The notes below the pieces were generated by a model. It had not been told where the DNA came from. It was given only the letters and a program-made list of their open reading frames with translations, and searched no databases. A stretch of DNA of 64,000 nt from Candidatus Latescibacterota bacterium. Its GTDB lineage: Bacteria; Latescibacterota; UBA2968; GCA-2709665. The first letter of the stretch is position 1; the number at the start of each line of letters is the position of its first letter. The stretch spans positions 64,001-128,000 of the forward strand of contig OZ220733.1 in NCBI GenBank assembly GCA_965116875.1, given 5' to 3'. Below are positions 1 through 30,878 of this stretch, one piece after another. The position numbers and the translations under genes are program-made.

Positions 1-945
1 GAAATGCAGCTGTGTCTCCGAGTAGAGGTCGTACTCGAACCCTTCCCGCTCCAGCCAGCCCATCAACCGCCATTCCGCCGGCGCCACGTGATTCGGGGCC
101 CGCCCCTCGATCGGATCGGTTACCTGTTCTTCCTCGGGTACCGCATTGATCGGCTCCGGACGCTCGAACGACAGCGGCAGATACTCCTCCGCATCGTAGT
201 TTATGTGCTCCGGATCGGTGTAGCGCTTCAATTCGAGCCGGGCATTGATGGTTGGTGTGGGAGGCATCTTGTCCGGGTGAATATAGTTGCTGCGTCCGCC
301 GAAATTATTGTAGCAGTTCCAGTTGATGTTCGACGCCAGCACGGCCACTCTCGCCCGCGGTTGGGACGGCGCAACAACCCACGGAAACGAAAAGAACAGG
401 CCGGAATCCGTTTTCGCATGAAAATAGTAGAGGCCGGACCGTTCAGGCGCCGTGACCAGTTGTTTATGTCCCGGGCTGGTATACCCGAACCGGTTCCACT
501 GTGCGCCCACCTGCGTATAATCACCGTCGGGAGTCAGCTGCACGGTAGCCCGCGGTCCGTGCTCGTCGTACCACCCGATCGGCCTGATGAGTTCCTTTTT
601 CCAGCCGTAACGCCACAACTCCAGTTTGTACTGTTCGTGTGAATGCACGCGAAATTCGGAGCGATCGCCCGACTTGACGCACTTGGGCCACACGTAGCCC
701 ATGAGGCAGTCCTTCAGCAGACGAAACTGATGGGGTTCATCGGGCTTCACCTCCATATTGACGATCTTCGACCCGTACCCATGCCGCGCCAGAACCACCT
801 GATACCGCCCTGGCGAAACGTCCGCATATACCGCACCCGATGCCGACGAACGTGCGGGAACCGCGTTTCCCGACGCGTCCCTGAACTCCAGCGCCACGTC
901 AGACATCGCGATATAGCGCTCATCACTCACGTATCCCACCAGCAT
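1..945 (-). CDS. N,N-dimethylformamidase beta-subunit-family protein with an N-terminal carboxypeptidase-regulatory-like domain (3' end runs off the window)
   Basis: Not in the ORF track because it has no stop in the window. I translated it from ATG 945 (RBS AAGGAG): MLVGYVSDERYIAMSDVALEF...GYVWPKCVKSGD...PERSGLYYFH...VAVLASNINWNCYNNFGGRSNY...LSFERP...EWRLMGWLEREGFEYDLYSETQLH. The W-x-x-YN-x-FGG-x-S-x-Y, SF-x-RP and WLEREG motifs are typical of this family. Confidence 0.75.
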   Translation of the reverse strand, partial: MLVGYVSDERYIAMSDVALEFRDASGNAVPARSSASGAVYADVSPGRYQVVLARHGYGSKIVNMEVKPDEPHQFRLLKDCLMGYVWPKCVKSGDRSEFRVHSHEQYKLELWRYGWKKELIRPIGWYDEHGPRATVQLTPDGDYTQVGAQWNRFGYTSPGHKQLVTAPERSGLYYFHAKTDSGLFFSFPWVVAPSQPRARVAVLASNINWNCYNNFGGRSNYIHPDKMPPTPTINARLELKRYTDPEHINYDAEEYLPLSFERPEPINAVPEEEQVTDPIEGRAPNHVAPAEWRLMGWLEREGFEYDLYSETQLHF

Positions 946-1021
946 ATCGCGCTCTCCTTGCTTTGAGTCTCCGTATTGATTCTCATCTGTCAATCGATGT
1001 GCGTTCGATGCAATCGTCCCC

Positions 1022-2422
1022 TTACGTCGTATAGCCGGGAGGGTGCTCCGCCCGCCAGTCCGTTGCCTGCTCGTACGCGTAGGCCAGCCGCAGAATCGTC
1101 GCCTCGTCGTAAGGCTTGCCGGTCAGCTGCAGTCCTACCGGAAGTCCCCGGGACGTAAACCCGCAGGGTACGGATACCGCGCACAGACCCAGCCAGTTTA
1201 CGAGCCGCGTGAGCAGACGGTGCGGCTCCCCGCGGTCCAGATCGCTCAAGCGCGGGGCGGGCGACAACATCGTGGGACCGGCGACGGCCTCGACGTCTCT
1301 CAACCTTGCCGCCGTCGTGCGCATCATTTCGGCTCGTTTTCGCTGAATCTCCGCAAGATCGACGGCAAGCAGGTCCGGCTCGACCTGAAGGCGCGCACGG
1401 ACGCCGGCGCCGAACGAATCCGGCGTTTCCGCCAACGCCTTGCGATGAACAACGACCGCCTCGGTCCGCAGGAGCCTCAGGTTATCTTCCTCTCGTTCGG
1501 CCTGAACCGCCTCGGGTAACGTCATTTCCCGGACGTGGACGCCCAGGCCGGCGAGGACATGAATCGCATCTTCCACGCGAGAGACGACGTCCGGTTCCGC
1601 CCCACTGAAGAATGGTTCGCGGACCACGGCGAGCCGAAGGCCGGAGACATCCTTCTTCATGAGACCCACGACGTCGCCAACCGGCAGATCGAGTGCGGTG
1701 GCATCTCCGGCATCCGCGCCCGCGATCGCCTCATAGATCAGCGCGGCGTCCTCGACGCATCTGGCCATGGGCCCGATCGTGTCCAGCGTCCAGGAAAGCG
1801 GCATGACGCCCGCCGTGCCGATGCGGCCCGTTGTGGTCTTGAGACCGACGATACCGCAGTATGCCGCGGGAATACGCACCGACCCGCCGGTGTCCGTTCC
1901 GATCGCGGTCGCGGCCAGGCCGGCCGCGACCGCCAGCCCGGATCCGCTGCTGGATCCGCCGGGAACCCGCCGCGGGTCCCATGGATTCGGCGGCGTGCCG
2001 AAGTGAGGGTTGATTCCGAACGGACCGAAGGCATATTCCACAAGGTTCGTCTTGCCCAGCAGCACCGTGCCCGCCCGCGCCAGTCGCTTCGCCACCGTGG
2101 AGGAGGCCGCGGGCACGTAGTCCTTCCTCGCCAGCGCTCCCGACGTGGTTCGAATGCCCGCGGTATCGCACAGGTCCTTCAATGCAATCGGCACGCCGTG
2201 CAGCGGCCCGGCATCGTTGCCGGACCGGAGCGCCCGTTCCGCGGCCTTCGCATCCGCCCGCGCTCGATCGGGGGTTACCGTAATGAAGGCATTCGTGCGA
2301 GGCTGATACCGATGGATGCGCTCCAGATACGCTTCGGTTACGTCTACAGGCGAAACCTGTCCGCTGCGGTACAGCCCGGCGAGTTCCCCGGCCGTCAGAA
2401 AATGAAGTGCGCGCTGTGCCAT
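1022..2422 (-). CDS. Amidase signature (AS) family amidase, GatA-like
   Basis: 466 aa; GPLHGVPIALKDL (catalytic Lys), PGGSSSGSG and GTDTGGSVRIPAAYCG (Ser-cisSer-Lys triad). No gatB or gatC is adjacent, so I do not call it gatA. Confidence 0.9.
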   Translation of the reverse strand: MAQRALHFLTAGELAGLYRSGQVSPVDVTEAYLERIHRYQPRTNAFITVTPDRARADAKAAERALRSGNDAGPLHGVPIALKDLCDTAGIRTTSGALARKDYVPAASSTVAKRLARAGTVLLGKTNLVEYAFGPFGINPHFGTPPNPWDPRRVPGGSSSGSGLAVAAGLAATAIGTDTGGSVRIPAAYCGIVGLKTTTGRIGTAGVMPLSWTLDTIGPMARCVEDAALIYEAIAGADAGDATALDLPVGDVVGLMKKDVSGLRLAVVREPFFSGAEPDVVSRVEDAIHVLAGLGVHVREMTLPEAVQAEREEDNLRLLRTEAVVVHRKALAETPDSFGAGVRARLQVEPDLLAVDLAEIQRKRAEMMRTTAARLRDVEAVAGPTMLSPAPRLSDLDRGEPHRLLTRLVNWLGLCAVSVPCGFTSRGLPVGLQLTGKPYDEATILRLAYAYEQATDWRAEHPPGYTT

Positions 2423-2521
2423 AACAGTCCGTTGATCATGCCGTTCTGAAGGCCTGCCCGTGAAGCGTTGGCAGGCAGGCGAGGCCGCCGCCGCAATACC
2501 CGGAACACCGCAGGCATCGGC

Positions 2522-2860
2522 CTAACCACAGCCCGGTCCTCTGACCTCCTGCCACGCAACCTGTTCCGGCAGCAACCCGCGCGCGAAGCCTTTCGGGTCC
2601 GCACGATGGCCATCGACGAGTTGCCGGATCTCTTTCAACACCCGCTCGCGGTCGTAAAGTCCGTACCGGTAGATGTCGATCGGCCCGATAAGCTTCAGAT
2701 AGAAATGGTTGCCGGCATCGTGCTCCTCCGCGCATGCGCTGGGCTTGTGAGCGATATCCAGCTGCGCATCGAACGCGTCCGCGAAAGCAGCCAGCAGCGG
2801 TTCACCGTGCAGATCGGCCGGAATCTCCGGAAACCGGTTTACCAGTTCCTGAATTGTCAT
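2522..2860 (-). CDS. Hypothetical protein (112 aa)
   Basis: ATG 2860 follows a strong RBS (CAGGAGG); MTIQELVNRFPEIP...VRGPGCG; co-directional with the operon. Confidence 0.7.
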   Translation of the reverse strand: MTIQELVNRFPEIPADLHGEPLLAAFADAFDAQLDIAHKPSACAEEHDAGNHFYLKLIGPIDIYRYGLYDRERVLKEIRQLVDGHRADPKGFARGLLPEQVAWQEVRGPGCG

Positions 2861-3269
2861 CCTCCTGCTCCTCTCCCTGATCCGTCCCGGTTTCCCGAAG
2901 CAACTCATCGGGAATCCGCTTGCGCCCCTGATAACCTTCCATGGGACCGTGGTAATGCGTGATGGCCGGCTCATCGCTTCGCCAGCACAGAAGCACCTCC
3001 TGTCCGTCAATTACGCCGGGAAAATCCACAAGACCCAGGCTGAAATTGGGGTCCTTGTACGAACATCCGATACCCTCCAGTTCCTGGAAGAACTCATTCA
3101 ACGATGCAATCAGCTTTTTGATCTCGGCATCGTCGGCCGCGGCTGGCCCCAGTTCCCCGGCAAGCTGCCTCAACCTGCGTCCGGACGCCTGGATGTCGGC
3201 AACGATGCGTTTCACCAGCGGCAGGGTCCGGTTGGCCTCAAGCGGCGTGAAATACCTGATTTCGTTCAT
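2802..3269 (-). CDS. DUF2203 family protein
   Basis: MNEIRYFTPLEANRTLPLV...GLVDFPGVIDGQEVLLCWRSDEPAITHYHGPMEGYQGRKRI matches the DUF2203 pattern; start moved to ATG 3269. Confidence 0.85.
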   Translation of the reverse strand: MNEIRYFTPLEANRTLPLVKRIVADIQASGRRLRQLAGELGPAAADDAEIKKLIASLNEFFQELEGIGCSYKDPNFSLGLVDFPGVIDGQEVLLCWRSDEPAITHYHGPMEGYQGRKRIPDELLRETGTDQGEEQEDDNSGTGKPVSGDSGRSAR

Positions 3270-3285
3270 CGACGCCACCCCCTTG

Positions 3286-4353
3286 TCAAAAGGCGCCGGG
3301 CTCCGTGCCCGCGTCCCGAGGGTTTCGATCCCGCCGGCCGACGTCACCCGACACGAAATCGTCCAGCCGTATCAGCGCTCCTCCGCGGGATGCAGACGCA
3401 TTCGCGCCCAGCACCGCGGCCAGACTGTTCAACGCCTGCCCGTACCCGTTTCGCAGTGCCGACGGGTCGCCCGATCGGATCGCGTTGACAAATTCACGCG
3501 CCTGGCTGGCAAACGCATTGTCCGCGGCGGGCGCCTTGAAAACCGTCTCCCCGTTTTCCACGACCCTCTCCGCTGACCACTCCATCAGCGAATCGTCGCA
3601 CACCACCACCACCTCCCGCCTGGACGCACTCACGTTCGTCAGCACGCGCGAGGTGGTCACACTGGCCACAACGCCGTTTTCGAATCGGTAATTCACGTCG
3701 TACACATGGGGCAGGTTGATGGGCTCGGGACCTTCCCCGGGCTTGCGATAATGATAAAACGCGGAAACCTCCGTGATGTCACCCAGGAAGAACCTGAGCA
3801 GGTCCACCATATGAATCGTATTCTCCACAAACGATCCGCCGCAGAGTTCGAAACGGCTTGTCCAGTATCGAATGTGGCTGCCGCTGTAAAGCAGTTGTAC
3901 GAGCGCGTGTCTGGGCGTCCGTTTCGAGATCCGGTCTCGCATGAACTTCGCGGTTGTGTAGTACCGACTCATGAAACCAACCTGAGAAGGAACCCCCGAC
4001 TTCCTTATCGCTTCGCTGAACCGGACGGCCTGTGCCATGTCGAGCGTCTGGGGCTTCTCCACCATGACGGGAATCCCCTTCTCCGCGGCAATCAATTCGG
4101 CATCCGTATGCAGGGTGGGCGGGATGCAGACGTAGACGCCGTCCAGATGCTCCTTGTCGAACATTTCGCGATGGTCTGTATATACGGCATTCGCCCCGAA
4201 AGTCCGCGCGTGGCTGGCGGCCGTTTCACCGTCCACGTCGCAAAACGCCTGCAGGGTTACCATGCCTTTCCCCGCCAGCTCGGCAAGCGGCGGTAGATGG
4301 GCATTGACCGTAATGTGCCCCAGTCCGACGAAACCCAGTCGTGCGGCGGTCAT
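3286..4353 (-). CDS. Gfo/Idh/MocA family oxidoreductase
   Basis: LGFVGLGHI Rossmann start, VMVEKP, GGSFVENTIHMVD; start ATG 4353 after GAGGAAGAGG. Confidence 0.9.
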   Translation of the reverse strand: MTAARLGFVGLGHITVNAHLPPLAELAGKGMVTLQAFCDVDGETAASHARTFGANAVYTDHREMFDKEHLDGVYVCIPPTLHTDAELIAAEKGIPVMVEKPQTLDMAQAVRFSEAIRKSGVPSQVGFMSRYYTTAKFMRDRISKRTPRHALVQLLYSGSHIRYWTSRFELCGGSFVENTIHMVDLLRFFLGDITEVSAFYHYRKPGEGPEPINLPHVYDVNYRFENGVVASVTTSRVLTNVSASRREVVVVCDDSLMEWSAERVVENGETVFKAPAADNAFASQAREFVNAIRSGDPSALRNGYGQALNSLAAVLGANASASRGGALIRLDDFVSGDVGRRDRNPRDAGTEPGAF

Positions 4354-12428: not shown

Positions 12429-12600
12429 GTGGGCATGATAGGAAACCCTTGTTTTTTTTTCGCTTTTTGAGTTAATTATGGTTCCGCTTCCGATACCGGA
12501 TTGCCATGGAGACTCGCCAATCCACCATACGCGGCGCATCACGGATTCGGCGTAAGGACGTCCTGTCCGTCCCGGTCTCTCGTTCTCAAGGAGGACATCG

Positions 12601-13110
12601 ATGATAAAGGAAAACGTACAGGCTGCATTGAATCAACAGTTGAATTCAGAACTGTACGCCTCGTATTATTATCTTTCGATGTCGGCCTATTTTCACGCCA
12701 CAAACCTTACGGGATTCGCCTCCTGGATGCGCGCCCAGGCCCAGGAGGAACTGATGCACGCAATGAAGATTTACGACTTCATCAATGACAGGGAAGGCGA
12801 GGTTGCACTGACGACCGTTGCGGCGCCGAAACGCCAATGGGACGATTCACTCGCGGCGTTCGAAGATGCCTATCAGCACGAAAAGGCGGTAACCGCCCAG
12901 ATTTACGACCTGGTAGACCTAAGCGTCGAAGAACGTGACCATGCGACCAACACCTTCCTTCAGTGGTTCGTGACCGAACAGGTGGAAGAAGAGGCCACCG
13001 CAAGCGATATCGTAAACAAGCTGAAACTGGTCGGCAACGACGGCAACGGCCTGTTTCTTCTGGACAGGGACCTGGGAAGCCGAAACCAGGAATCGGACGG
13101 GGACGAATAA
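12601..13110 (+). CDS. ftnA: Non-heme ferritin
   Basis: LNQQLNSELYASYYYLSMS, QAQEELMHAMK, HEKAVT, FLQWFVTEQVEEE ferroxidase motifs; RBS AAGGAGG. Confidence 0.95.
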   Translation: MIKENVQAALNQQLNSELYASYYYLSMSAYFHATNLTGFASWMRAQAQEELMHAMKIYDFINDREGEVALTTVAAPKRQWDDSLAAFEDAYQHEKAVTAQIYDLVDLSVEERDHATNTFLQWFVTEQVEEEATASDIVNKLKLVGNDGNGLFLLDRDLGSRNQESDGDE

Positions 13111-13204
13111 ATCACCTCGCCCCGGCGCGTTTGTTGCATCACACTGAACACCTCGGCCGACCGGCGCCGACGGAATTTCCCTGCGAAAAAATCATGATCG
13201 CATA

Positions 13205-13233
13205 TTGACAAATCGTCATTCCTATGTTATCTT
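13205..13233 (+). promoter_or_regulatory. Strong sigma70-type promoter (extended -10)
   Basis: TTGACA (13205-13210), 17 nt, TATCTT (13228-13233) preceded by TGn. Confidence 0.75.
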
Positions 13234-13238
13234 GTTAT

Positions 13239-13446
13239 TTCACAGGGCTTTCTGTAAGCAGGAAGCCGCATTTGATACCGGAATCACCTGCCACCCCCTG
13301 GCAATGAAACGGTGACTCCGGCAAGTCGTGCGATCCGGCGTTACAGGATCCGGGCGGTGGAACCCCGGAGTTCCGGATCGAAATGCTACATCGGGAATCG
13401 GTTCCCCTGATCGGCTCCCGCATGAATCGTCAGTTTTCCCCGTGAG
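13239..13446 (+). ncRNA. Putative structured non-coding RNA or leader, family unidentified
   Basis: Begins at the predicted TSS; the 5' end (TTCACAGGG) pairs with the 3' end (CCCCGTGAG); several nested stems found by eye; no credible ORF; followed by a hairpin. Confidence 0.55.
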
Positions 13447-13480
13447 TTCAACGCCTCGCCCCTGGAGGGGTTGAACTTTC
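13445..13480 (+). terminator. Hairpin closing the putative ncRNA (terminator or attenuator candidate)
   Basis: AGTTCAAC-GCCTC...GAGGG-GTTGAACT followed by a pyrimidine-rich tract; the U-run is weak. Confidence 0.45.
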
Positions 13481-13500
13481 CGATCCTCCCTTCTCCCTTA

Positions 13501-13662
13501 GAAGCTGTTTTAAAATCCCCAGCGGTCTTCGCGCGGCTGCAAAAGCGCCGGTCGGCGTTGGTAAAGCCCACCCGTATAGACAAATATGGGCGGATTTTCC
13601 CGCCTTGACCGCCACTTTTTCGCTCGCGCTCGGGAACTCACCGGTAATTTTAATACAGCTTC
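13501..13662. mobile_element. MITE-like element, family A copy 1 (162 bp)
   Basis: Terminal inverted repeats GAAGCTGTTTTAAAAT / ATTTTAATACAGCTTC, flanked by TTA on both sides; second copy at 49293-49478. Confidence 0.85.
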
Positions 13663-13855
13663 TTATTCGTTTCCTCCCCTTTCCAGGTTGTGTTGTTCAC
13701 GTTCACGGTCGGCACTGTCGAACCTGTGTGTCGCGGTTCGTGCGTTCTGCACCCACGGGATCTGTCTGTGTACGGGTTCCGGGTGGCTCCTGATCGATCG
13801 TAATGATGCCGGGAACCGCCACGCAGACGACCGCACCATTGTCCGGGGGAAAGTA

Positions 13856-14737
13856 ATGCCTGCAACGGTAATGAGCCAACAGAACGGGATTTCGTCACGG
13901 GGAAAGAAGCGATCAGCACTTGAACTCTACCTTAAGGATATCGCATATAACGACCTGCTCACGCCGCAACAGGAAGTTACGTTGGCCAAACGTATCAGAG
14001 CCGGAGACCGCAAGAGCCTGGAACAGATGGTCGAATCCAACCTCCGGTTCGTCATCACGATCGCCAAGGAATATCAGGGGCGGGGATTGCCCCTTGAAGA
14101 TCTGATTGCCGAGGGAAATCTCGGTCTGGTTCGGGCGGCGACGCGGTACGATGAAACGGTGGGGGTCAAATTTACAACCTACGCAGTCTGGTGGATCCGG
14201 CAGGGCATCCTCTCCTCTCTGGCGGAAAAAGCCCGCATGGTCAGGCTGCCCGTAAACAAAATCAAACATCTGTGCCGGCTGGAGCGCATTGCATCAGGCC
14301 TCAAGCAGAAACTCGGGAGGGAACCAAGCATCGACGAGATCGCGGTGGGGGCCGAAATGCAGCCCAAGCAGGCGCAGGATCTGCTAAACGCTTCGCGTTG
14401 GCACGTGTCCCTTGATATGCCACTGGAGGAGGGTCCGGATTCGTCCCTGCTCGAGGTCCTCGAGGATAAAGACCAGGTCTCACCCGAAAACGAAGTGATG
14501 GAACAGGCGATGGCCGACGAGATCCGGGCCGCGCTCGATACCCTGTCTTCCCGCGAGGCCCGAATCCTGCGCCTTTATTTCGGAATCAACGGCGAAGATT
14601 CCATGACTCTGGAACAAATCGGCAATCAACTCAGTCTAACTAAGGAGCGCGTTCGGCAGATTCGGGACAAAGCGCTTGCATCGCTTAAACACCCGTCGCG
14701 GGTGCGAAAAATCCGGGCATACCTCACGGAGAACTGA
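13856..14737 (+). CDS. RNA polymerase sigma factor, RpoD/SigA family lacking region 1.1
   Basis: LELYLKDI (1.2), SNLRFVITIAKEY, DLIAEGNLGL, KFTTYAVWWIRQ (2.3-2.4), VSLD, TLEQIG-x4-LTKERVRQI (4.2). Start is ATG 13856 or 13871. Confidence 0.93.
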   Translation: MPATVMSQQNGISSRGKKRSALELYLKDIAYNDLLTPQQEVTLAKRIRAGDRKSLEQMVESNLRFVITIAKEYQGRGLPLEDLIAEGNLGLVRAATRYDETVGVKFTTYAVWWIRQGILSSLAEKARMVRLPVNKIKHLCRLERIASGLKQKLGREPSIDEIAVGAEMQPKQAQDLLNASRWHVSLDMPLEEGPDSSLLEVLEDKDQVSPENEVMEQAMADEIRAALDTLSSREARILRLYFGINGEDSMTLEQIGNQLSLTKERVRQIRDKALASLKHPSRVRKIRAYLTEN

Positions 14738-19704: not shown

Positions 19705-20340
19705 ATTGAATACCTCGCATCTTGACGGCAGGCGCTCCAGTGGAATTTTCAATCCAGGGAGGAACGCGTCGGCGGCATCCCGCCACGTCACGATAAAAGA
19801 CCGGTCGCGAACGGGTTGGGCGGATGGGTCGTGATCGCGAAAACTCCAGAACAGGTAACACAGTACGTACACGTCGAAGTTCGAGGTAAAGACCCGGCAG
19901 ATTTCCTGGCCCAGTCCCTTGGACAGCACATACACACCCGTTCCGGGCCTCGGGGGCAAGTCCGGACCGATGCGATGGTCCCAATTCATGTAGGGGTCGC
20001 CCTGTAAGGTGTAATACGGCCCCGTGTTGATCACGCGCCGGATCCCGTTTTTCACGGCCGCGCGTATCACGTTATAGCATCCCAGGGTATTCACGTCGAA
20101 CGCGATTTTTCGATGCGGCCGCAGAACGGACAGGTTGATAATCGCGTCCATCCCTTCCGCGGCGCGCATGACGGCTACAGGGTCCGCCACGTCCACGGGC
20201 ATCATCTCGTGGGACGTTTCAAACGGCTCCAGATCCGTAATCCGAAGGGACACGCGCCCTTCAAGCGCCTTCACGACGTGCGGACCCACCATCCCGTTGC
20301 CGCCGTAAATCACGACTTTCATATCCGTCACCAGGGTCAC
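19594..20340 (-). CDS. NAD-dependent epimerase/dehydratase, tandem copy A
   Basis: GGNGMVG, YVLSK; the start may be ATG 20322 (MKVVIY). Confidence 0.9.
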   Translation of the reverse strand: MTLVTDMKVVIYGGNGMVGPHVVKALEGRVSLRITDLEPFETSHEMMPVDVADPVAVMRAAEGMDAIINLSVLRPHRKIAFDVNTLGCYNVIRAAVKNGIRRVINTGPYYTLQGDPYMNWDHRIGPDLPPRPGTGVYVLSKGLGQEICRVFTSNFDVYVLCYLFWSFRDHDPSAQPVRDRSFIVTWRDAADAFLPGLKIPLERLPSRCEVFNILGDRPHGHFTNEKARRILGWQPRDGLEYTYMKKPV

Positions 20341-20354
20341 GCGGATTCAACGAT

Positions 20355-20999
20355 TCAGATTCCGAGGGCACTCTTAGCCTGGTCGACTGGAAACCTCGCG
20401 TTTTCGACCTCGGACTGCACGTGCAGCACCCGCCACATCGGCCCGTCTATCGTCAATGCGGATGCGATTGCCCTGACCGCGTCCGTCACAGACAACGCGG
20501 CGTCGCCGTCGCCGCCAACTTCCCCGAGCCGCAGGCAAGTCACGCGCACCGAGTGTTCCCGAGCGAATTCTCTGCACGTGAACTCACCGAGGTACTTCCC
20601 CAGAGGTCCTGCGTCCGTCGACGGCCTGGGCGCCCACTGCTCCGTCACGTTCCAGTTCGGATCGCACGTCTCGAAAAGGCTGAGCGAACTGAGGTAGACC
20701 ACGTGGCGGACGTTTTTCTCCCGTGCGGCCGCCATCAGATTGTACGTGCAACGCGTCTGGAAATCGATCTCGCTCTCGTCAGTCCTCTGCCGTTCGGGCA
20801 ACTGCGCGACGTGCACGATCGCATCCATCCCGTCCACCAGGGATTCCGTGTCGCCGTCGTGGCCCAGTTCACACGTGCGAAATGCGAATTCCGTCGACAC
20901 TTCCACGACGTCGGTCAACGTCACCTCGTGTTGCCGCGACAGGTCCTCAGCCAACGCCCGAGCAAGCGCCGTCCCTGCTGATGTAATCAGTACTCTCAT
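20355..20999 (-). CDS. Divergent NAD(P)-binding SDR-like protein with degenerate catalytic motifs
   Basis: MRVLITSAGTALA, GMDAIVHVA, TYNLMAAA, VVYLSS, CLRLG; lacks the canonical GxxGxxG and YxxxK motifs. Confidence 0.8.
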   Translation of the reverse strand: MRVLITSAGTALARALAEDLSRQHEVTLTDVVEVSTEFAFRTCELGHDGDTESLVDGMDAIVHVAQLPERQRTDESEIDFQTRCTYNLMAAAREKNVRHVVYLSSLSLFETCDPNWNVTEQWAPRPSTDAGPLGKYLGEFTCREFAREHSVRVTCLRLGEVGGDGDAALSVTDAVRAIASALTIDGPMWRVLHVQSEVENARFPVDQAKSALGI

Positions 21000-21136
21000 G
21001 AGTCTCGCTCCTGTATCTGGAAATTCCATCTGCCCAAGCAAAGAGGTGCCTATCCAGCCAACGAACCTCAATTCGAAAAGAGACAACAGTCAAACCGGCC
21101 ATAGCAACCGCATTCCACCCACAAGCAAATCGTGCG

Positions 21137-21460
21137 CTACACGGCGATCACGCGTCGTTGTCCCTCCCTGCTTTCTGACGGGATGATCCGGATCTCGATA
21201 TCGCGATTGAGGCGGATAAGAAATGTCATCAGACGCTCTACGCTATAATGATTGAAATTTCCCCTCTTGAGACGGGATATTTCAGGCTGCTGCACGCCCA
21301 GGATATCGGCTGCTTCCGCCTGCGTCAGCTTCCGCTTTCCTATAATTTGAAACACCTCATAGCCGAGCGATGCCTTCAGAAACAACTCACCCGCGTCGGG
21401 TAATTCCAGATCTTCGAACACGTTGCCTGAACTCCGTTCAATGGCGATCTCATCGCTCAT
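21137..21460 (-). CDS. XRE-family HTH protein (HTH_37 / HigA-like antitoxin)
   Basis: SSGNVFEDLELPDA, LTQAEAADILGVQQPEISRL, SVERLMTFL; RBS GGAGG before ATG 21460. Confidence 0.88.
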   Translation of the reverse strand: MSDEIAIERSSGNVFEDLELPDAGELFLKASLGYEVFQIIGKRKLTQAEAADILGVQQPEISRLKRGNFNHYSVERLMTFLIRLNRDIEIRIIPSESREGQRRVIAV

Positions 21461-21708
21461 GCTTCGCCTCCGGTTTCTGCGCCACTTGAACAGTCCGTTG
21501 AGAAAGTCGCTCTGCAGGCGAGGCCTGGTGTCCCGCCCCGGAAATAAATCGCCATTGTGGTCGAAGACAAGGCGCGCGACCGGGTCCCATCCTGCGATTC
21601 GGTGAGGGAGCGCAACGCAGCTTTTCGACGGCAAGGGCCGGCCGTAGCCCGGATGGACTTTTTCAACGGGCTGTTCAGGCGTGTACCTGACAGATCGCCC
21701 TCTCTCAC
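21450..21708 (-). pseudogene. Probable remnant of a RelE/HigB-type toxin gene, interrupted and deleted by the MITE
   Basis: GAGG RBS plus GTG 21708 (MREGDLSGTR) before the MITE; ...VAQKPEAKHER* after it, overlapping the antitoxin start. Toxin identity is inferred from position only. Confidence 0.45.
21487..21677. mobile_element. MITE-like element, family B (191 bp)
   Basis: 22-bp terminal inverted repeats TGAACAGTCCGTTGAGAAAGTC / GACTTTTTCAACGGGCTGTTCA (20 of 22 complementary); no coding capacity; no obvious target duplication. Confidence 0.75.
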
Positions 21709-21733
21709 GGGAACCTCACGGAGATCATGTCCA

Positions 21734-21762
21734 AATATAACCAATTGGATATAAATTGTCAA
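21734..21762 (-). promoter_or_regulatory. Sigma70 promoter with a palindromic operator in the spacer
   Basis: Minus strand TTGACA, 17 nt, TATATT; palindrome TATAACCAATTGGATATA at 21736-21753. Confidence 0.7.
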
Positions 21763-21795
21763 GGTCTTTGCCGCTTGCAACAGGATAAACACCCT

Positions 21796-22308
21796 CTAAA
21801 GATACTGATAATACGTGACCTGGGGCTGGACGATGTTGAAACCCGCCTTTTCGTATGCGCGGCGCGCGGGAGCGTGACCCTCGTCCAGACCGGTACCCAC
21901 ACAGGCAAAGCGGAGTCCCTCGGACCTGAAGCAGTCGAGGGCATAGCGATACATCGCCGTGCCGAGACCCTTGCCCTGCGCCTCGGGCGCCACGGCATTG
22001 TTCGTGATTCTGCCCAGGGATTTCTTCCGGTCGATCGAAAACGTCAGGAATGCGACAACGTCCGGTGTCTCCGCGGCGACGACAACGCGGAACCACTCCG
22101 GATGCGTCTCCCAGTGGCGGCGGACCGCGATTGTTTTCTCTTCCTCCCAATTCGCGCACAGCACGGCGTGCATTTCTTCTCCCATGATCTCCGCGGTACT
22201 GACGTGGATCCTCTTCCACCCCTGCCGGGCGATCTCACCCACGCGCTCCATATCCTGCGAAACCGCCCGTCGTATTCGAAATCCTGCGGTGAGTTCGGAA
22301 TCCGGCAT
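21796..22308 (-). CDS. GNAT family N-acetyltransferase
   Basis: NNAVAPEAQGKGLGT acetyl-CoA motif, ARRAYEKAGF. Confidence 0.9.
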   Translation of the reverse strand: MPDSELTAGFRIRRAVSQDMERVGEIARQGWKRIHVSTAEIMGEEMHAVLCANWEEEKTIAVRRHWETHPEWFRVVVAAETPDVVAFLTFSIDRKKSLGRITNNAVAPEAQGKGLGTAMYRYALDCFRSEGLRFACVGTGLDEGHAPARRAYEKAGFNIVQPQVTYYQYL

Positions 22309-22559
22309 GCCTAACCATCCCTCTGGCTTTCGTCATTCGTCGCCTGGTCCTGCATGGAGTCTTCAGCAGGAAAAGCGAATGGACTTAATGTGCGGAACGC
22401 GTTACCCTCGGCCGTTGCCCCTGTAGTGAAGCGTCATCAGGACAGGACGCGCAGTCGACGGCGCTGTTCGCGAAATACAAAGGCGTTGACATTCGGCCGG
22501 GAGCCGATATCTTGAAATCGATGGCCGAAACCAACCAGGCACGAAAGGAGCGACACCGG

Positions 22560-23324
22560 ATGAAACTTGGCATCGTCACCTATCAGATCGCGAAAGACTG
22601 GGATGTTCCCACACTGATCGACATGTGCCACACCACGGGAATCCAGGGCGTCGAACTTCGCACCACCCACGCGCACGGTGTGGAGATCGCGCTTTCATCC
22701 GCCGAACGGAGCGCGGTCAGGCGCCGCTTCGAGGACGCGGGGGTCGAAATCGTGGGCCTCGGGAGCGTCTACGAGTACCACGCCGCGGATCCGGAGACCG
22801 TGCGCCGGAACATCGACGGGACCGTCGAAACCGCGCGGCTCGCCGCGGACCTGGGCTGCTCCGGCGTCAAGGTTCGTCCCAACGGGCTGCAGACGGAAAA
22901 GGGCATTCCGGAAGAACAGACCCTGGAACAGATCGGGCGCGCGTTGGGAGAATGCGGCGAAGCAACCGTGGACCTGGGCGTCCAGATTCGCGTTGAGGTC
23001 CACGGCAGGGACACGTGCGAACCCCGGCGCATGCGCACGATCATCGACCATGCCGACCATGACAACGTCTACATCTGCTGGAACTGCAACCCCCAGGACG
23101 TCGTTGACGGCTCGGTCAGGAGCGGCTTCGACTTGCTGAAACACAAAATCGGGCTCGTGCACATCAACGAATTGCACAAAGCCGAATACCCCTGGCGGGA
23201 ACTCTTCGGGCTCCTGAAAGCCGAAGGATACGACGGATACACCCTGGCCGAAATCCCCGACAGCCCGGAGCCGGAACGGCTCTTGCGTTACTACAAAGCC
23301 CTGTGGCAGGCGCTTATGGCCTAG
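22560..23324 (+). CDS. Sugar phosphate isomerase/epimerase (xylose-isomerase-like TIM barrel)
   Basis: GIQGVELR, VEVHG, LVHINEL, GYDGYTLAE; RBS AAGGAG; upstream TTGACA-16-TATCTT at 22486-22513. Confidence 0.88.
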   Translation: MKLGIVTYQIAKDWDVPTLIDMCHTTGIQGVELRTTHAHGVEIALSSAERSAVRRRFEDAGVEIVGLGSVYEYHAADPETVRRNIDGTVETARLAADLGCSGVKVRPNGLQTEKGIPEEQTLEQIGRALGECGEATVDLGVQIRVEVHGRDTCEPRRMRTIIDHADHDNVYICWNCNPQDVVDGSVRSGFDLLKHKIGLVHINELHKAEYPWRELFGLLKAEGYDGYTLAEIPDSPEPERLLRYYKALWQALMA

Positions 23325-25225
23325 CAGCCCGGAATCCGGAAGCTCCAGACTTCGGATCTGTGGGTATAATAGAGCCTGCCTTCGCGAATGACAATGCCCG
23401 CGTTCGCATTCACCGGGGGTGTTCCCAGCGACGAGTGTTCGAACGAACCCGGTTCGATCCGAACGATCGCGTTGCGAAAGAGCGCGTAGATCTCGTTGTC
23501 GGGCCCCGCCGCCATGATCCTGGGGGCCTGTTGGCCCGCCAGGTCGCCGTAGGGCAGCTTCGCCTCGAAGTGGACGATCTCGCGCGACCCGGGATCGAAA
23601 ACGAAGAATGCCGATCCGGCGGCCAGGCCGTAGATCAATCCGTCGGGACCCAGGAGCATGTCCGGAATCACCGTGGCGCCCGGCACAACCACTTCGCGAA
23701 AAAGCACACGGCCTTCATCCGGATCCAGAATGTAGAGTTCCGCCTCCTTCGCGTGCGTCTCACCTCCCGTTCCGGGACTTATCGTCGTCCCGCACACGAT
23801 CTTCCCGTCCGGCAGCGCCACAATCGATACCGTGCTGTGGGCGGGAATCAGCTCCTCGTGGGTCAACAGCGTATGGCTCCCGGACCCGGTATCCCAGATC
23901 AGCATCCCTCCGCCCGTCAAACCATAGCCCGGCGTTCCCGTCATGATCAACCGCCGCCCGTCCGGGTGCGCCAGAAGCGCGTGCGGGCGGATAATTGTGG
24001 GATTCACGGATATCAAAACCCTGGGGTTCGGGTCCTCAGGCGCCCGATCGTCCCACGGCCGCGCGGGGTCGTATTCCCAGAGCCTGCCGTCCGCGTACTC
24101 CGCGCAGTAGATCTTTTCGCCCTGAACGGCGAGCGCGTTCAGGTGTCCGATCAGGTCCAACAGACCGTGGTGGGTGAACGCATCCGCCTCCGGATCGTAC
24201 GTATAGAACCTCAGCGGATGCCCGGTCGAACCGTGGATTCTGCCGTCCGGACCCTCCGCGATCGACAGGATGGGGGATCCCTCCGACTCATAGTCGATTT
24301 CCAGACGTCTTACCGTTCCCGCCTCGTTGACTTCGACGTACTTCTCCGGAAGGTTGATCTCATCGAGCGACCAGCCATCCGGGAAATTGTCCAGGACCGC
24401 CTCCTGGATGCCGGCCATGATCGGCCGCTCGGCGGCGGGCGCGTCCACCGGCGTCACCGCGCCTTCGAGCATCGCCCACCACGGACCGGTGTCGAACGTC
24501 CTCCCGTACACCTTGCCGTCCACACCCCGGTAGACGGACGATGAGCCGTGCCGGCGGTCGGACTCGGGAATCAACGCGGCACGTTCGCCTGTTGCCGGAT
24601 TGAATGAAACGATCTGCCCGCGCGTGGCGCCGATGCCCGCGTAGACCCACCCGGAACCGTCCACCGCGATCGTCCTCGGGTACTGAGGCCAATTCTCATG
24701 GTTGAGCGGGCCGTGGTTCTCCAGTTTTTGGCTGTCCGGATCGAAGCTCAGCAATTCGCAGTTGGGATACGCGGACGTCCAGACCGTGCCGTCATCGTCT
24801 TCTGTAAACGACATGGCGAATCTCGGCGGCGCGTCGGACCAGAACGTGAAGCGGCGTGATTCGGCGTCGAACTCCACGAACTTGTCGAAATACGAATAGA
24901 ACCGGTTCCGCGTGGACAACAGAACGGCAAAGGGCGTGGAGGCCATCCCGAACGGCGTCGGAATCTCCTCCACCTCGCCCGTCCGTGCGTCGATCACGAG
25001 AATCGAACCGCATCCCCTGTGGTCCATCGGCCACGCCAGGACGATGGGCTGCCCGTCACCGTCCACCGTTGCCGCCACGCCTCGCGCGCGGGACACCGGG
25101 GCGGCAACGCCATGCCGCGCGAACCCGTCCCCGAAATCACGGGTCGCGGCCTCAGCCGTACGTCTGAAAACCAACAGAAACGTGGCCAACAGTATGGCAA
25201 ATGCCGTGAACGAAACCGGGCTCAT
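23321..25225 (-). CDS. Secreted beta-propeller repeat protein
   Basis: Signal peptide (MSPVSFTAFAILLATFLL...AEA); repeated GPDGxIYG, DGKVYG and FDPxxx blade motifs. Confidence 0.75.
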   Translation of the reverse strand: MSPVSFTAFAILLATFLLVFRRTAEAATRDFGDGFARHGVAAPVSRARGVAATVDGDGQPIVLAWPMDHRGCGSILVIDARTGEVEEIPTPFGMASTPFAVLLSTRNRFYSYFDKFVEFDAESRRFTFWSDAPPRFAMSFTEDDDGTVWTSAYPNCELLSFDPDSQKLENHGPLNHENWPQYPRTIAVDGSGWVYAGIGATRGQIVSFNPATGERAALIPESDRRHGSSSVYRGVDGKVYGRTFDTGPWWAMLEGAVTPVDAPAAERPIMAGIQEAVLDNFPDGWSLDEINLPEKYVEVNEAGTVRRLEIDYESEGSPILSIAEGPDGRIHGSTGHPLRFYTYDPEADAFTHHGLLDLIGHLNALAVQGEKIYCAEYADGRLWEYDPARPWDDRAPEDPNPRVLISVNPTIIRPHALLAHPDGRRLIMTGTPGYGLTGGGMLIWDTGSGSHTLLTHEELIPAHSTVSIVALPDGKIVCGTTISPGTGGETHAKEAELYILDPDEGRVLFREVVVPGATVIPDMLLGPDGLIYGLAAGSAFFVFDPGSREIVHFEAKLPYGDLAGQQAPRIMAAGPDNEIYALFRNAIVRIEPGSFEHSSLGTPPVNANAGIVIREGRLYYTHRSEVWSFRIPGC

Positions 25226-25533
25226 GTCAATCCTCCGGTTGGTTACATCATATACCGACGGGCCCACGGCTGCCAATATGTGGAGCCGCGCTTCGAAAGT
25301 CAAGCGGATGCAATGCCACCGAGGCAGTTCTGGTCGGCATACCCACCAATCTCCCATTAGAAACAGAAATGCCAATCCGGGAGCAGATCGGCTTCTGAAA
25401 AACGTGCCGCACAACTTTGGAAAGAAGAGCCATTTCAGACAGCGAGATCTGCGCACTGCCTGTCGCACGGCTCTGATTGGCGGGGATGATTGTCGAACAC
25501 GTCGAATTGATGCGCGATTTCGTCGTTTTGGGT

Positions 25534-26577
25534 TCAGCTATTTGATAGGTGCGCAATCAACTCCGTTTCCAAATTTTCGGCTTCCTCCCTTGTAAGGTAT
25601 GGCACCTTTATCGTGCGCGCCCAGAAGAAGCTTTTTCCGGTAATTTCAGAAACTTTCCGAAAGTCCATTGCACAGATTTTCGGACCCCTTACCGGTATTG
25701 GAGTTGTAAATTCCACTTGCCTAAACCACATATCCTTCTCTTCACTCTTTTCGATGTTACCTCCCTTTACTCGACCAGCAGCAACGATGCCGGTCCCTCT
25801 GTGGGAAAGGAAAATAAAGTCGTCCGGATGTATGTATCCAACGAAATGTTTCGTAGTTCCCCACGCGGCGACTCGGCTATGTTCGATCATTTCCCAGATC
25901 GATTCTTTATTGTAGGTCTTGTTGGTATCGAATAGCACTCCTTTAATGGAATTTGGATTTCGATGCTTGTCATATGGCAACGCGAAAAACTCGAAATATT
26001 TCTCGTTGTTCAGTTCATAAATTCTATACGGCAGGAAGTCGATTAAAATTCCCTGTTTCTTCCAATAGTCCGCCGCATTGATTAGGCTATCGTCCGCAGC
26101 GCTTCCGATTACAATCAACCTCTGTCTGTTGTTTATGTCTTCAACGTCCAGTTGTTGCTTAAGGCCGAATGCTTCCTTGTGCGCTTTGCGTAGTTCGATT
26201 TCATCTCCGTCAGCGTACATTCGGTTTCCTTTGTACTCACGGTATTTCTTTTGTAACGTCTCGTAACTCCATTGTCCGGCACTCTGCGCATAGCGCAAAG
26301 CCTGTTGGACGGCATCTTCGCCAGTAGTACCTCTCTTTAGCTCAAAAATGACCAACTCACCTCTTTCGTCCAACGCATAAATGTCTGCTTCTGCCTTGCC
26401 TTTCTGTTCTTGGAATACTGGCATTAGACTCGATTCCTCATACAGCACATCCAGAATGCTCTTTGCGATCAAATCTTCCAGATCTTTCTCGACGTTCTTA
26501 AAGCTTGCGAAATCCCTAAATGCCACGGGTTCGAGTGTATCGAATTTCCCTTCGGTCGACCCAAGTTTGTATAACAT
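25534..26577 (-). CDS. NucS/EndoMS-like PD-(D/E)xK nuclease fused to a C-terminal PUA/EVE-like domain; AT-rich
   Basis: EKDLE...ADIYALDERGELVIFELKR...QALRY nuclease motifs; C-terminal DDFIFLSHRGTGIVAAGRV; visibly lower GC than the flanks; ATG 26577 after GAGG. Confidence 0.75.
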   Translation of the reverse strand: MLYKLGSTEGKFDTLEPVAFRDFASFKNVEKDLEDLIAKSILDVLYEESSLMPVFQEQKGKAEADIYALDERGELVIFELKRGTTGEDAVQQALRYAQSAGQWSYETLQKKYREYKGNRMYADGDEIELRKAHKEAFGLKQQLDVEDINNRQRLIVIGSAADDSLINAADYWKKQGILIDFLPYRIYELNNEKYFEFFALPYDKHRNPNSIKGVLFDTNKTYNKESIWEMIEHSRVAAWGTTKHFVGYIHPDDFIFLSHRGTGIVAAGRVKGGNIEKSEEKDMWFRQVEFTTPIPVRGPKICAMDFRKVSEITGKSFFWARTIKVPYLTREEAENLETELIAHLSNS

Positions 26578-26675
26578 AGAACTACCTCTTTCTGGTAACA
26601 AATGTACCGGAACAGGACGTATTTGAAGTCAAATCCAGACCGCCACAAGTACCCGGGTTTTCCCGTGCGTCCAAT

Positions 26676-27251: not shown

Positions 27252-27577
27252 TGGCGTTTCCGTCTCGACACGGCGATGCGCCTGATGAATCGTATACGGT
27301 ATCTTGCTCGATATTTCCTGCGAAACCCTGCGGCGGATATATTGTACCCCCTCGTCCCGTTACCTATCGAACCGTAATCCCTAACGAAGATACCGATATC
27401 GTCAAACGACGGTCAAGCTTCATGTGCGGCCGGAACGAAGCCTGTTGGCGATCAAAGCCCATGGGTCCTGTTGCAACTGTCGGAACCGTCGCCAAGTGAC
27501 GACGATCGCGCATAACCTGTTAATTTCATTGCAATTTGTGAGTTCTTTGTCTATTTTCGATCTTCCGCGTTCACACA

Positions 27578-28975: not shown

Positions 28976-28989
28976 CAATCAGTCGTAAA

Positions 28990-30872: not shown

Positions 30873-30878
30873 CCGGCG

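Follow-up and report, generated by a model that had tools for sequence, protein, structure and literature searches.

A conserved, structured non-coding RNA element upstream of a sigma-70-family gene in an uncultured Latescibacterota genus

What kind of RNA begins upstream of a sigma factor gene in an uncultured genus of Latescibacterota, and does it act alone or on the gene that follows? A sequence-only reading of the window (the whole stretch of DNA analyzed here, 64,000 nt) had placed an unannotated structured RNA with its own promoter in front of the sigma gene, and had offered a new sRNA, cis-acting control of the sigma factor, a 6S-like RNA or an iron-linked sRNA as explanations. We know of no work on post-transcriptional control in Latescibacterota, and a limited literature search found no description of this element. 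Judging from record titles, sponge-associated lineages occur in the phylum.

Promoter, conservation and extent of the leader

The features of the locus, in window coordinates, are as follows.

13186–13191, + strand: A-tract upstream of the −35 hexamer; the A run is kept in all aligned genus sequences and its flanks vary
13205–13233, + strand: promoter TTGACA, 17-nt spacer, TG-extended TATCTT, from a promoter scan and invariant hexamers
13246–13267, + strand: P1 hairpin, GGCUUUCUG / CAGGAAGCC, loop UAAG; 90.8% of cells paired
13278–13321, + strand: P3 hairpin; inner stem 13289–13293/13299–13303, C-rich apical loop 13294–13298
13322–13391, + strand: P4 region, fast evolving; helices differ by species in per-species folds; conserved unpaired AGAACC-like block
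13392–13420, + strand: P5 hairpin, CCCCU in the apical loop (13404–13408); 87.7% of cells paired
13434–13441, + strand: single-stranded UUUUCCCC block; across 15 sequences, nine columns do not vary or are conserved to at least 90%
13445–13477, + strand: P6 hairpin, 8+4 bp, loop GCCCCUG (13458–13464), then UUUCC; 97.2% of cells paired
13478–13500, + strand: first CU tract, UUUCCGAUCCUCCCUUCUCCCUU; mean pairwise identity 0.85
13501–13662, no strand assigned: MITE-like insertion, 162 bp, terminal inverted repeats GAAGCTGTTTTAAAAT / ATTTTAATACAGCTTC, TTA on both sides
13670–13684, + strand: central UUUCCUCCCCUUUCC motif, then AGGUUGU; conserved in the genus, predicted Shine-Dalgarno partner in 8 of 14 species
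13685–13844, + strand: 3' module of the leader, several hairpins; mean pairwise identity 0.75
13845–13853, + strand: Shine-Dalgarno region GGGGGAAAG, G-rich, 5' of the sigma ATG
13856–14737, + strand: sigma-70-family gene, 293 aa, regions 1.2, 2, 3 and 4 by Pfam matches

The sigma gene is one of eight paralogues in the genome. Its product is RpoD/RpoS-like in NCBIfam, scoring below every equivalog cut-off, and shares 95–98% identity with its orthologues within the genus, 73–87% with most others in the phylum and 64–66% with three outliers. In all 15 genus sequences the element occurs once per genome, directly 5' of this same gene. Matches to it were found by blastn in 13 of the 14 other genus genomes and in none of 46 genomes outside the genus; with nhmmer, all genus-level loci (13 of 13) showed a full-length copy 5' of the sigma gene, among them L027, which blastn had missed. 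The element is single-copy in this genome, and neither blastn nor nhmmer found it away from the sigma gene. Outside the genus, an nhmmer search for the 5' module over 80 loci gave only promoter-sized matches, in L029 and L032, and the best hit of a covariance model of P5–P6 (R1) over 42 loci had an E value of 0.66. A metagenome scan with the P6 pattern returned 83 stretches; the 80 loci examined held one true full-length copy, identical to that of L006, and 23 others that were similar only around the pattern.

The central claim of the sequence-only reading, an unannotated structured non-coding RNA tied to the sigma gene, stood: the element is conserved, has its own promoter and matches no Rfam family. 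Rfam, one of the checks suggested there, returned no family at threshold on the 64-kb window and only chance-level matches (E of at least 2.6) in 13100–13900. No reading frame is conserved in the element, and across the 15 sequences the longest open frames agree neither in strand nor in frame.

The near-consensus promoter described in the same reading was borne out. With TTGACA at 13205–13210, TG at 13225–13226 and TATCTT at 13228–13233, it is the best site in 12500–14500 (10 of 12 matches), where four sites were found against 1.1 expected, and neither hexamer varies among the 14 genus sequences in the alignment. At a spacing of 16 to 18 nt from TTGACA, TATCTT ranks second among the −10 hexamers of this genome (22 of 279). 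Transcription is expected to start near 13237–13242, and the A-tract may be a UP-element-like sequence. No second + strand promoter-like site was found by the promoter scan between ferritin and the sigma ATG, which lies 650 nt from the promoter, or approximately 490 nt without the MITE. Outside the genus, 21 of 36 loci have a TTGACA...TAT(C/T)TT promoter 390–710 nt 5' of the orthologous sigma ATG (23 of the 38 scanned in all). The ferritin gene appears not to be constant: in L030 and L034, judged by eye from the sequence, a regulator-type C terminus stands upstream in its place.

The promoter and the whole leader are conserved. Mean pairwise identity is 0.47 in the spacer after ferritin, 0.79 in the promoter, 0.65 in P1–P4, 0.80 in P5–P6, 0.85 in the CU tract, 0.75 in the 3' leader and 0.88 at the start of the sigma coding sequence. 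Conservation is thus unbroken from the promoter to the ATG, with no fall after P6 and approximately 215 further conserved nt between P6 and the gene. The 3' module (13685–13844) carries single-base indels and is therefore not coding; RNAalifold on the 3' leader gave 43 pairs, five of them with two-sided changes, and a covariation term of only −0.07.

The MITE lies outside the ancestral leader, which it splits in this genome. The exact site is empty in nine of the 15 genus sequences (L027 and eight of the 14 in the alignment); five genomes carry the MITE between the 5' module and the rest, and one more keeps a remnant. The last three bases of the CU tract, TTA, are one copy of the target duplication. 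The genome gives 123 blastn matches to the MITE, 75 of them at least 140 nt long; depth in DNA runs is 350–3450 over the insertion against 3.5–15 in its flanks, and contigs break at 13500 and 13663. Because of this insertion, the leader measures approximately 620 nt here compared with approximately 460 nt ancestrally.

Because conservation is continuous to the ATG, no second promoter was found and orthologues also have a distant promoter and a long leader, we favor, at somewhat better than even confidence, a reading of 13236–13480 as the genus-specific 5' module of a cis-acting sigma leader of 460–620 nt, and as neither a free-standing sRNA nor a 6S RNA. We infer that transcription continues from the leader into the sigma gene. 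Of the two roles first put forward, cis-acting control fits better and a new sRNA less well. Insertion of a MITE precisely at the junction of the 5' module with the rest of the leader counts against a single leader, as it would fit two independent units too.

Local hairpins of the 5' module

RNAalifold on a MAFFT alignment of the 5' module gave a weak consensus (covariation term −0.63), so the helices were defined by hand, which biases the pairing statistics. Across species, the local hairpins P1, P3, P5 and P6 pair in 91.7% of 780 cells, compared with 32–52% for slid controls, a difference inflated by the derivation of the tested structure from the same 15 sequences. Two-sided changes were found in eight local-hairpin pairs, a number equalled by 1 of 500 shuffles, and the covariation score was 0.152 against 0.114 in shuffles (0 of 500 reached it). 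In P1, the pair at columns 20–27 changes from U-A to G-C or G-U in four sequences. P3, which had been proposed from the sequence with its inner stem, is present and kept across species; its helices 2 and 3 are 90.6% and 91.5% paired, three of its pairs show two-sided changes, and a 12-nt internal segment is absent in this genome and its two nearest relatives and present in the other 12. Three P5 pairs are changed on both sides (GC/CG/GU, GU/UA/CG, GC/AU). P6, likewise proposed earlier and kept across species, is almost invariant, so covariation is little informative there. The P4 region contains 10-nt and 5-nt indels in the alignment. These data indicate that several of the hairpins are real and that the element is a candidate RNA motif with modest covariation.

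The idea that the RNA closes on itself fared worse: over the 15 sequences, long-range helices pair in 64.3% of cells compared with 91.7% for the local hairpins. The proposed closing helix, 13239–13247 with 13438–13446, is 66.7% paired, with two of its nine pairs formed in no sequence; the helix of 13258–13268 with 13412–13421 is 71.0% paired. Two further proposed helices, GCATTT/AAATGC and, in the P4 region, CGATCCGG/CCGGATCG, pair in 44–80% and 59.3% of cells, respectively. The GGGAA-TCGG-TTCCC hairpin is paired in 88% of cells, but none of its pairs has a two-sided change; the longer P5 hairpin that competes with it has three such pairs. Covariation in relatives, suggested earlier as a check, was modest, with two-sided changes in the local hairpins and poorly kept long-range helices.

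The hairpins also reveal the strand. On the + strand 715 of 780 cells pair, 118 of them as G-U, compared with 616 of 780 on the − strand, and the G-U pairs favor the + strand. Folding against shuffles, another check proposed with the claim, gave z = −2.98 for 13236–13480 on the + strand (matched by 1 of 200 shuffles), a modest signal, and z = −3.99 on the − strand; with modest values on both strands, energy alone does not choose between them. CCCC is exposed in the loops of P3, P5 and P6, and again in UUUUCCCC at 13434–13441.

C runs and the ribosome site of the sigma gene

Most of 38 sigma orthologues have GGGGGAA(A) ahead of the ATG, the exceptions being G-rich variants and three misplaced starts, and this unusual GGGGGAAA Shine-Dalgarno is also present on sigma orthologues across the phylum. 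The 16S rRNA of the organism ends in CACCUCCUUUCU, and GGAG-type sites are in use, with an 8-fold enrichment at −13 to −9; GGGGGAA lies near the start of only 8 of 3732 long ORFs. A set of 84 rows of ORFs with GGGGGAA near their start was too noisy to serve as a target list.

C runs are in excess on the transcribed strand of these leaders. In the 450 nt 5' of 48 sigma orthologues there are 278 C4 runs and 72 G4 runs. In 21 leaders, C4 was observed 122 times compared with 67 expected from dinucleotide shuffles, and YTCCCCH 69 times compared with approximately 12.6. Leaders across the phylum have five to nine C runs each, and in the examples taken the C content is 0.25–0.31 against 0.16–0.26 for G; the seven paralogous sigma genes of this genome have zero to three C4 runs over the same span, with starts estimated roughly. 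The excess is not significant in this window itself (6 versus 3.8, p approximately 0.10, and 2 versus 0.6), and by C4-run density the leader ranks no higher than roughly the top 1% of 450-nt windows. When the whole genome was searched for groups of at least five YTCCCC[ACT] within 350 nt, none was found, at this locus or elsewhere. Across the phylum, the long leader, the C-run excess and the G5 ribosome site go together with this sigma gene.

Partition-function folds of whole leaders from 14 species gave 65 of 70 Shine-Dalgarno guanines a summed pairing probability of at least 0.85, mostly with C-rich tracts, as raw fold values. The predicted partner differs among species: besides the central motif, it is the CU tract at 13478–13500 in 2 of 14 and, in another 2 of 14, the UUUUCCCC block, which is complementary to GGGGAAA of the ribosome site. 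In all nine MITE-free genus leaders RNAalifold paired UCCCCU with GGGGGA, and in 14 sequences of another family its partner for GGGGGA was a UUCCCC block; the UCCCCU/GGGGGA pairs never vary, so covariation speaks neither for nor against them. RNAduplex interactions of the Shine-Dalgarno or start region with the leader were not stronger than with mononucleotide-shuffled leaders (z from +0.9 to −2.9) or dinucleotide-shuffled leaders (z from +1.4 to −2.5). From the folds, it is probable that the C-rich loops and tracts mask the G-rich ribosome site of the sigma gene. A CUCCCCU...CC-AGGUUGU block, similar to the central motif and the AGGUUGU after it, was seen by eye in another family.

We propose that the strong vegetative-type promoter at 13205–13233 would start an RNA in which local hairpins (P1, P3, a variable P4, P5 and P6) form one after another and CU-rich tracts follow, three of the hairpins displaying a CCCC run in the apical loop. 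One or another C-rich element would then pair with the G-rich ribosome site GGGGGAAAG, and sigma translation may be held down until the leader is refolded by a signal, by a partner RNA or by a protein, a logic that can be likened to that of the E. coli rpoS leader. P6 might also be a partial transcription stop (attenuator). A more far-reaching version, which we put forward tentatively and consider doubtful, is a new leader type: an RNA of several hundred nt whose five to nine YUCCCC motifs, some of them displayed in hairpin loops, compete for a phylum-wide G5-AAA site or recruit a C-specific factor, and which in this genus carries a multi-hairpin 5' sensor, perhaps released at P6 as a C-rich-loop trans sRNA, so that one RNA would serve as leader and sRNA alike, with no Hfq, CsrA or RRM protein found.

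Alternative readings and comparison with known systems

The most serious alternative, though an unlikely one, is an independent trans-acting sRNA of approximately 240 nt (13240–13480) that has its own promoter, ends at P6 and uses its CCCC loops to pair with G-rich ribosome sites, possibly including that of the sigma mRNA, much as RoxS, FsrA and RsaE do with their C-rich regions. P6 was missed by the terminator scan because its tail, UUUCC, has three U where the scan asks for five T in eight; it has the stem of an intrinsic terminator and falls short in the U run. This genome shows no enrichment of U-tract terminators (16 found versus 19.8 expected), so weak tails may be normal and P6, stable, nearly invariant and followed by UUU, could be a real terminator. 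In another family, by contrast, the homologous stretch of the leader forms no P6-like terminator hairpin by eye, and in the genus conservation holds past P6. The strong promoter, with its A-tract and extended −10, would suit a separate RNA, but a transcript ending at P6 would leave the sigma gene without a promoter-like site. The three CCCC-loop hairpins and single-stranded UUUUCCCC would give such an sRNA its pairing regions, and the MITE is tolerated right after the CU tract 3' of P6; against this, the element was never found apart from the sigma gene and no C-rich sRNA family in Rfam matched it. A search of the genome, which is 97.7% complete, turned up no Hfq, CsrA or RRM protein; this is neutral here because RoxS-type sRNAs act without Hfq. 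Pairing of C-rich regions with ribosome sites is established for RoxS and FsrA, according to an excerpt of PMC8216469. A sequencing-run search returned one RNA run, with a share of 0.06, and two others, their kind unrecorded, which contain 98% of the words of the stretch and were taken as DNA. Contigs of the RNA run match the MITE, short conserved parts of the ferritin and sigma genes and nothing else; 13236–13480 lies outside this coverage, which makes the run uninformative either way.

Less probable again is a leader that serves as a binding platform, its YUCCCC motifs acting as Rho utilization sites for premature termination or as sites for a C-specific RNA-binding protein; this would be compatible with the cis-acting leader and does not exclude it. 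The genome has a rho gene, C exceeds G in the leaders, the five to nine C runs per leader recur across the phylum, and many copies of one short motif recall protein-titrating leaders. Rho, however, prefers unstructured RNA, and folding predicts base-pairing over much of the 5' module; the absence of detected RRM, CsrA and Hfq families leaves no candidate binding protein. Rho-dependent termination does occur in long 5' UTRs, including the rpoS leader, in the account excerpted from PMC6582626.

We regard it as highly improbable that the region is conserved as DNA, as operators for sigma regulators with incidental hairpins. P6 and the CU tracts are conserved in sequence beyond the need for pairing, and the one RNA run showed no transcript of the region, yet two-sided changes keep pairs in P1, P3 and P5, the G-U excess is strand-specific, the strand asymmetry of the C runs (278 versus 72) points to an RNA-level feature, and approximately 250 conserved nt (460 nt when the whole leader is counted) past a consensus promoter are far beyond what an operator needs. 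Least credible of all is a 6S-like RNA that binds the RNA polymerase holoenzyme and is encoded beside a sigma gene, as had been hypothesized: its size of approximately 240 nt, its strong promoter and a 6S slot left formally empty by the Rfam models genome-wide would suit it, but RF00013 and RF01685 had no match in the window at gathering score, in 13100–13900 with E up to 10 or in the genome with E up to 1, and what is conserved is a succession of local hairpins with a poorly kept closing helix, not a rod with a terminal stem and central bubble. The iron-linked sRNA also proposed finds no support at the promoter, where the best match to a Fur box, scored against an E. coli consensus, was 10 of 19, the background level; the conserved link of the element is to the sigma gene.

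The cis-acting leader therefore remains our preferred reading, and the locus is a defined, conserved and testable RNA element before a sigma factor of an uncultured phylum. As a candidate new RNA motif with modest covariation it is worth entering in motif collections and is no surprise in kind. If masking or attenuation is true, it offers a handle on when the sigma factor is made.

Among known systems, riboswitches and attenuators share with the locus a structured domain after the promoter, a terminator-like P6 and a gene downstream. They differ in that no known aptamer class in Rfam matches, no clear mutually exclusive antiterminator pairing was seen, approximately 215 conserved nt separate P6 from the gene and the P6 tail has three U. 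The likeness to 6S RNA (RF00013, RF01685) extends to the size range and to the abundance suggested by a strong promoter; the difference lies in the lack of a model match and of a conserved rod or closing stem.

RoxS/RsaE, FsrA and CsfG, the C-rich-region sRNAs of Bacillota, are short, discrete, trans-acting RNAs, and FsrA is Fur-regulated, echoing the earlier iron idea. The element resembles them in presenting CCCC in hairpin loops and single strands. C-rich regions mediate target mRNA pairing of RoxS and FsrA (excerpt of PMC8216469), and RsaE also pairs with target mRNAs through such a region (excerpt of PMC6158497). Here, in contrast, the RNA is approximately 240 nt long, fixed in cis to one gene and continuous with a conserved leader, with no Rfam match and no Fur-box-like site at its promoter.

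A further comparison is with the rpoS leader of E. coli, which itself occludes the ribosome site. We know of no counterpart in rpoS of the YUCCCC repeats and the G5 ribosome site. The two leaders have no sequence or structure homology and belong to different phyla, Hfq was not found here, and masking in our case is a fold prediction that failed shuffle tests. The rpoS leader is 567 nt long, and after the start of transcription its gene is controlled by sRNA-activated translation and Rho-dependent premature termination, as described in the excerpt of PMC6582626. What the two have in common is a long leader 5' of an alternative sigma gene, here probably some 460–620 nt with a ribosome site predicted to be paired; if masking or attenuation holds, the Latescibacterota locus would be a further case, sequence-unrelated to rpoS, of a long leader before an alternative sigma gene.

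Locus, promoter and extent of conservation

The element (13236–13480, + strand) is single copy in a complete genome of 5.45 Mb and lies between a ferritin gene and a sigma-70-family gene. The hairpins listed here come from per-species folds and the alignment.

Features of the sigma-gene leader and its surroundings (window coordinates)
Ends at 13110: ferritin gene, identified by family searches
13246–13267, + strand: P1 hairpin
13278–13321, + strand: P3 hairpin with an inner hairpin
13392–13420, + strand: P5 hairpin
13445–13477, + strand: P6 hairpin
13498–13500 and 13663–13665: TTA target duplication of the MITE
13501–13662: MITE inside the sigma leader; terminal inverted repeats GAAGCTGTTTTAAAAT / ATTTTAATACAGCTTC
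13856 (ATG) to 14737, + strand: sigma-70-family gene with regions 1.2, 2, 3 and 4, preceded by GGGGGAAAG

The sigma protein is RpoD/RpoS-like, yet it falls under every NCBIfam equivalog cut-off. Counting it, the genome encodes eight such paralogues, of which the closest is only 51% identical to it, and we therefore treat it as a putative alternative sigma factor. The seven further group-1/2-like paralogues (38–51% identical; contig coordinates 836439, 3917429, 4207084, 4781816, 1381151, 3863419 and 5191693) are approximately 270–330 aa in the stop-to-stop frame, except for one with a 270-aa N-terminal extension, and these matches included no long RpoD carrying region 1.1. Another of the genome's sigma paralogues resembles what we take to be the housekeeping sigma of Bacteroidota type.

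The near-consensus promoter noted in the sequence-only reading, TTGACA-17-TATCTT with an upstream TG, was the top promoter-like site in a scan of 12500–14500. Both hexamers are unchanged across 14 aligned genus sequences, in which an A-tract lies 5′ of the −35. TTGACA-type promoters are enriched in window 20001–40000 (13 versus 6.1 expected); the favoured −10 hexamers of the genome are TATATT and TATCTT, the latter ranking second among hexamers correctly spaced from TTGACA (22/279). By these features, the site resembles a strong promoter of the common vegetative type.

The region was matched by blastn in 13 of the 14 other genus genomes and in none of the 46 genomes that belong to other genera, families or orders. 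A profile search placed the element 5′ of the sigma gene in 13/13 genus-level loci fetched via the sigma protein and caught one copy (L027) that blastn had missed, and a metagenome scan gave no new sequences. In all, 15 distinct genus sequences were aligned. Mean pairwise identity along the locus rises from 0.47 in the spacer after ferritin to 0.79 in the promoter, then runs at 0.65 (P1–P4), 0.80 (P5–P6), 0.85 (CU tract), 0.75 (rest of the leader) and 0.88 (first sigma codons). Because identity stays high past P6 up to the sigma codons, the conserved unit, as judged by alignment, is the stretch from promoter through start codon, wider than the 13205–13480 interval originally drawn. The 15 sequences share no conserved reading frame, and Rfam gave no match to the element. 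Contigs of the one RNA run that matches any part of the stretch cover the MITE and gene fragments. The element is real, conserved, structured, non-coding and outside Rfam.

Local hairpins of the 5′ module

Folding energy was moderately better than that of shuffled controls (z −2.98 on the + strand), but the wrong strand scored better still (−3.99). Because the consensus that RNAalifold drew from the raw alignment was weak, helices were defined from per-species folds and the alignment. In the local hairpins P1, P3, P5 and P6, 91.7% of 780 cells were paired, compared with 32–52% in slid-partner controls, and 8 pairs had changed on both sides. The percentage paired, the two-sided changes (pairs or cells) and the covariation score were each equalled in at most 1/500 column shuffles; further pair types did not distinguish shuffles from the observed alignment (106/500). 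Covariation support for these hairpins is moderate, the tested structure being derived from the same, related sequences. The paired cells include 118 G-U pairs, and the same columns on the opposite strand pair in only 79%, which points to + as the RNA strand, as for the promoter and sigma gene.

P3 and P6, both proposed earlier, were kept across species, whereas the long-range helices thought to close the RNA on itself were kept in only 64% of cells. The GGGAA/UUCCC hairpin can form but shows no covariation, unlike an alternative P5 with CCCCU in its loop. Helices between P3 and P5 differ from species to species in the per-species folds, and some have a further hairpin, placed between P1 and P3, the two sides of which, by eye, diverge among species yet stay complementary.

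C-rich motifs across the phylum

P3, P5 and P6 each carry a CCCC run in the apical loop; single-stranded UUUUCCCC lies just 5′ of P6, CU tracts (CCUCCCUUCUCCC) lie 3′ of it, and UUUCCUCCCCUUUCC comes next after the MITE. The MITE is lacking at this site in 9/15 genus sequences, present in 5/15 and reduced to a remnant in one (L005), where the deletion also took the central CCUCCCC motif. It gives 123 blastn matches in the genome, 75 of them at least 140 nt (near-full copies), and is over-represented approximately 100- to 200-fold in DNA runs.

Sigma orthologues were collected from approximately 48 Latescibacterota genomes (73–98% identical, plus three outliers at 64–66%). A TTGACA...TAT(C/T)TT promoter stands 390–710 nt 5′ of the ATG in 23 of the 38 loci scanned (21/36 outside the genus), and GGGGGAA(A) precedes the sigma start in most of the 38. 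The organism has a canonical 16S tail and GGAG-type ribosome sites, and few gene starts of the genome carry GGGGGAA. All 16 aligned sequences of another family have a promoter approximately 330 nt upstream that shares the TATCTTG −10. By eye, that leader begins with two UCCCCU-loop hairpins; several YUCCCC blocks in single-stranded form come next, along with a CUCCCCU...CC-AGGUUGU block like the central motif of the window leader. A second promoter-like site, TTGACAAAT..TATTATTTT, occurs in locus L044 and most, but not all, of its relatives in that family alignment (f2), approximately 460 nt 5′ of the sigma start and 130 nt 5′ of the conserved TATCTT promoter.

The 450 nt upstream of 48 orthologues hold 278 C4 runs versus 72 G4 runs, one G4 usually being the ribosome site. 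Compared with dinucleotide shuffles, 21 leaders had 122 C4 runs (67 expected) and 69 YTCCCCH motifs (approximately 12.6 expected). The C-run excess of the window's own leader was not individually significant against such shuffles, and the feature is absent from the other seven sigma paralogues of the genome, whose starts were roughly estimated.

The upstream neighbour of the sigma orthologues is ferritin in several and, as read by eye, a regulator C-terminus in others; because it varies, the element's link appears to be to the sigma gene rather than iron genes. The iron-linked sRNA suggested earlier also found no support at the promoter when compared with the E. coli Fur-box consensus. Five loci have a perfect Shine-Dalgarno-like sequence, AAGGAGGUGU(A/G)A, approximately 380–480 nt 5′ of the sigma ATG: in L030 and L034 it coincides with the final codons of a gene upstream that reads like a regulator C-terminus, and in L029, L032 and L033 it lies within the leader, apparently as a remnant.

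Proposed leader control of the sigma gene and its alternatives

The 13236–13480 stretch most likely forms the 5′ module, specific to this genus, of a long leader acting in cis. Of the two roles first put forward, sRNA or cis-acting sigma attenuator, continuous conservation and sigma linkage favor the cis leader. In this leader, the ribosome site of the sigma gene would be masked by pairing with C-rich elements. In whole-leader ensembles of 14 species (native leaders only), 65/70 Shine-Dalgarno guanines had a pairing probability of at least 0.85. The predicted partner was most often the central motif (8 species); the first CU tract and the UUUUCCCC block each took this role in 2 species, and another segment did so in the last 2. 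RNAalifold paired UCCCCU with GGGGGA in 9/9 MITE-free genus leaders; in the other family, GGGGGA was paired with a UUCCCC block, and the region of the start codon with a segment next to that block. Because the genus pairs are invariant, the partner is inconstant and duplex energies were no better than with shuffled leaders, the case for masking is weak, and we offer it as a proposal, not a finding.

In loci L044–L058 and L064 of that other family, approximately 330 nt 5′ of the sigma start, RNAalifold pairs a 24-nt leader segment, UGCGGC.CGUG...UUUCCCC, with the ribosome site, start codon and codons 2–4. The 3′ strand of a hairpin with UCCCCU in its loop and the next UUUCCCC block make up this segment; hairpin and ribosome-site pairing would be mutually exclusive, a possible switch. 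This pairing shows one-sided changes only and no covariation.

An independent sRNA ending at P6 is a less likely alternative. P6 is strong and nearly invariant, the MITE follows right after the CU tract in 5/15 genomes, and the sRNAs RoxS and FsrA work through their C-rich loops, according to PMC8216469. U-tract terminators are also not in excess in this genome (16 hairpin-plus-U-tract terminators in window 20001–40000 versus 19.8 expected). However, conservation is unbroken along the leader, no second promoter was found, the element is strictly tied to the sigma gene and, by eye, the homologous stretch in another family is missing a P6-like hairpin. A Rho- or protein-binding platform would fit the excess of C over G in the leader and the presence of a rho gene. 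Hfq, CsrA and RRM_1 gave no Pfam family match in the 97.7% complete genome, and the usual RNA chaperones may be absent from the lineage. The 6S-like RNA once suggested fails both the fold test and the searches with Rfam 6S models. These models detect no 6S anywhere in the 97.7% complete genome, and this genome-wide absence is not usable against the idea.

We class the element as a new candidate for a cis-regulatory leader that controls a sigma-factor gene. The rpoS leader, 567 nt long, combines sRNA-activated translation with Rho-dependent termination, as described in PMC6582626, and the window leader may be like it in the logic of its proposed control.
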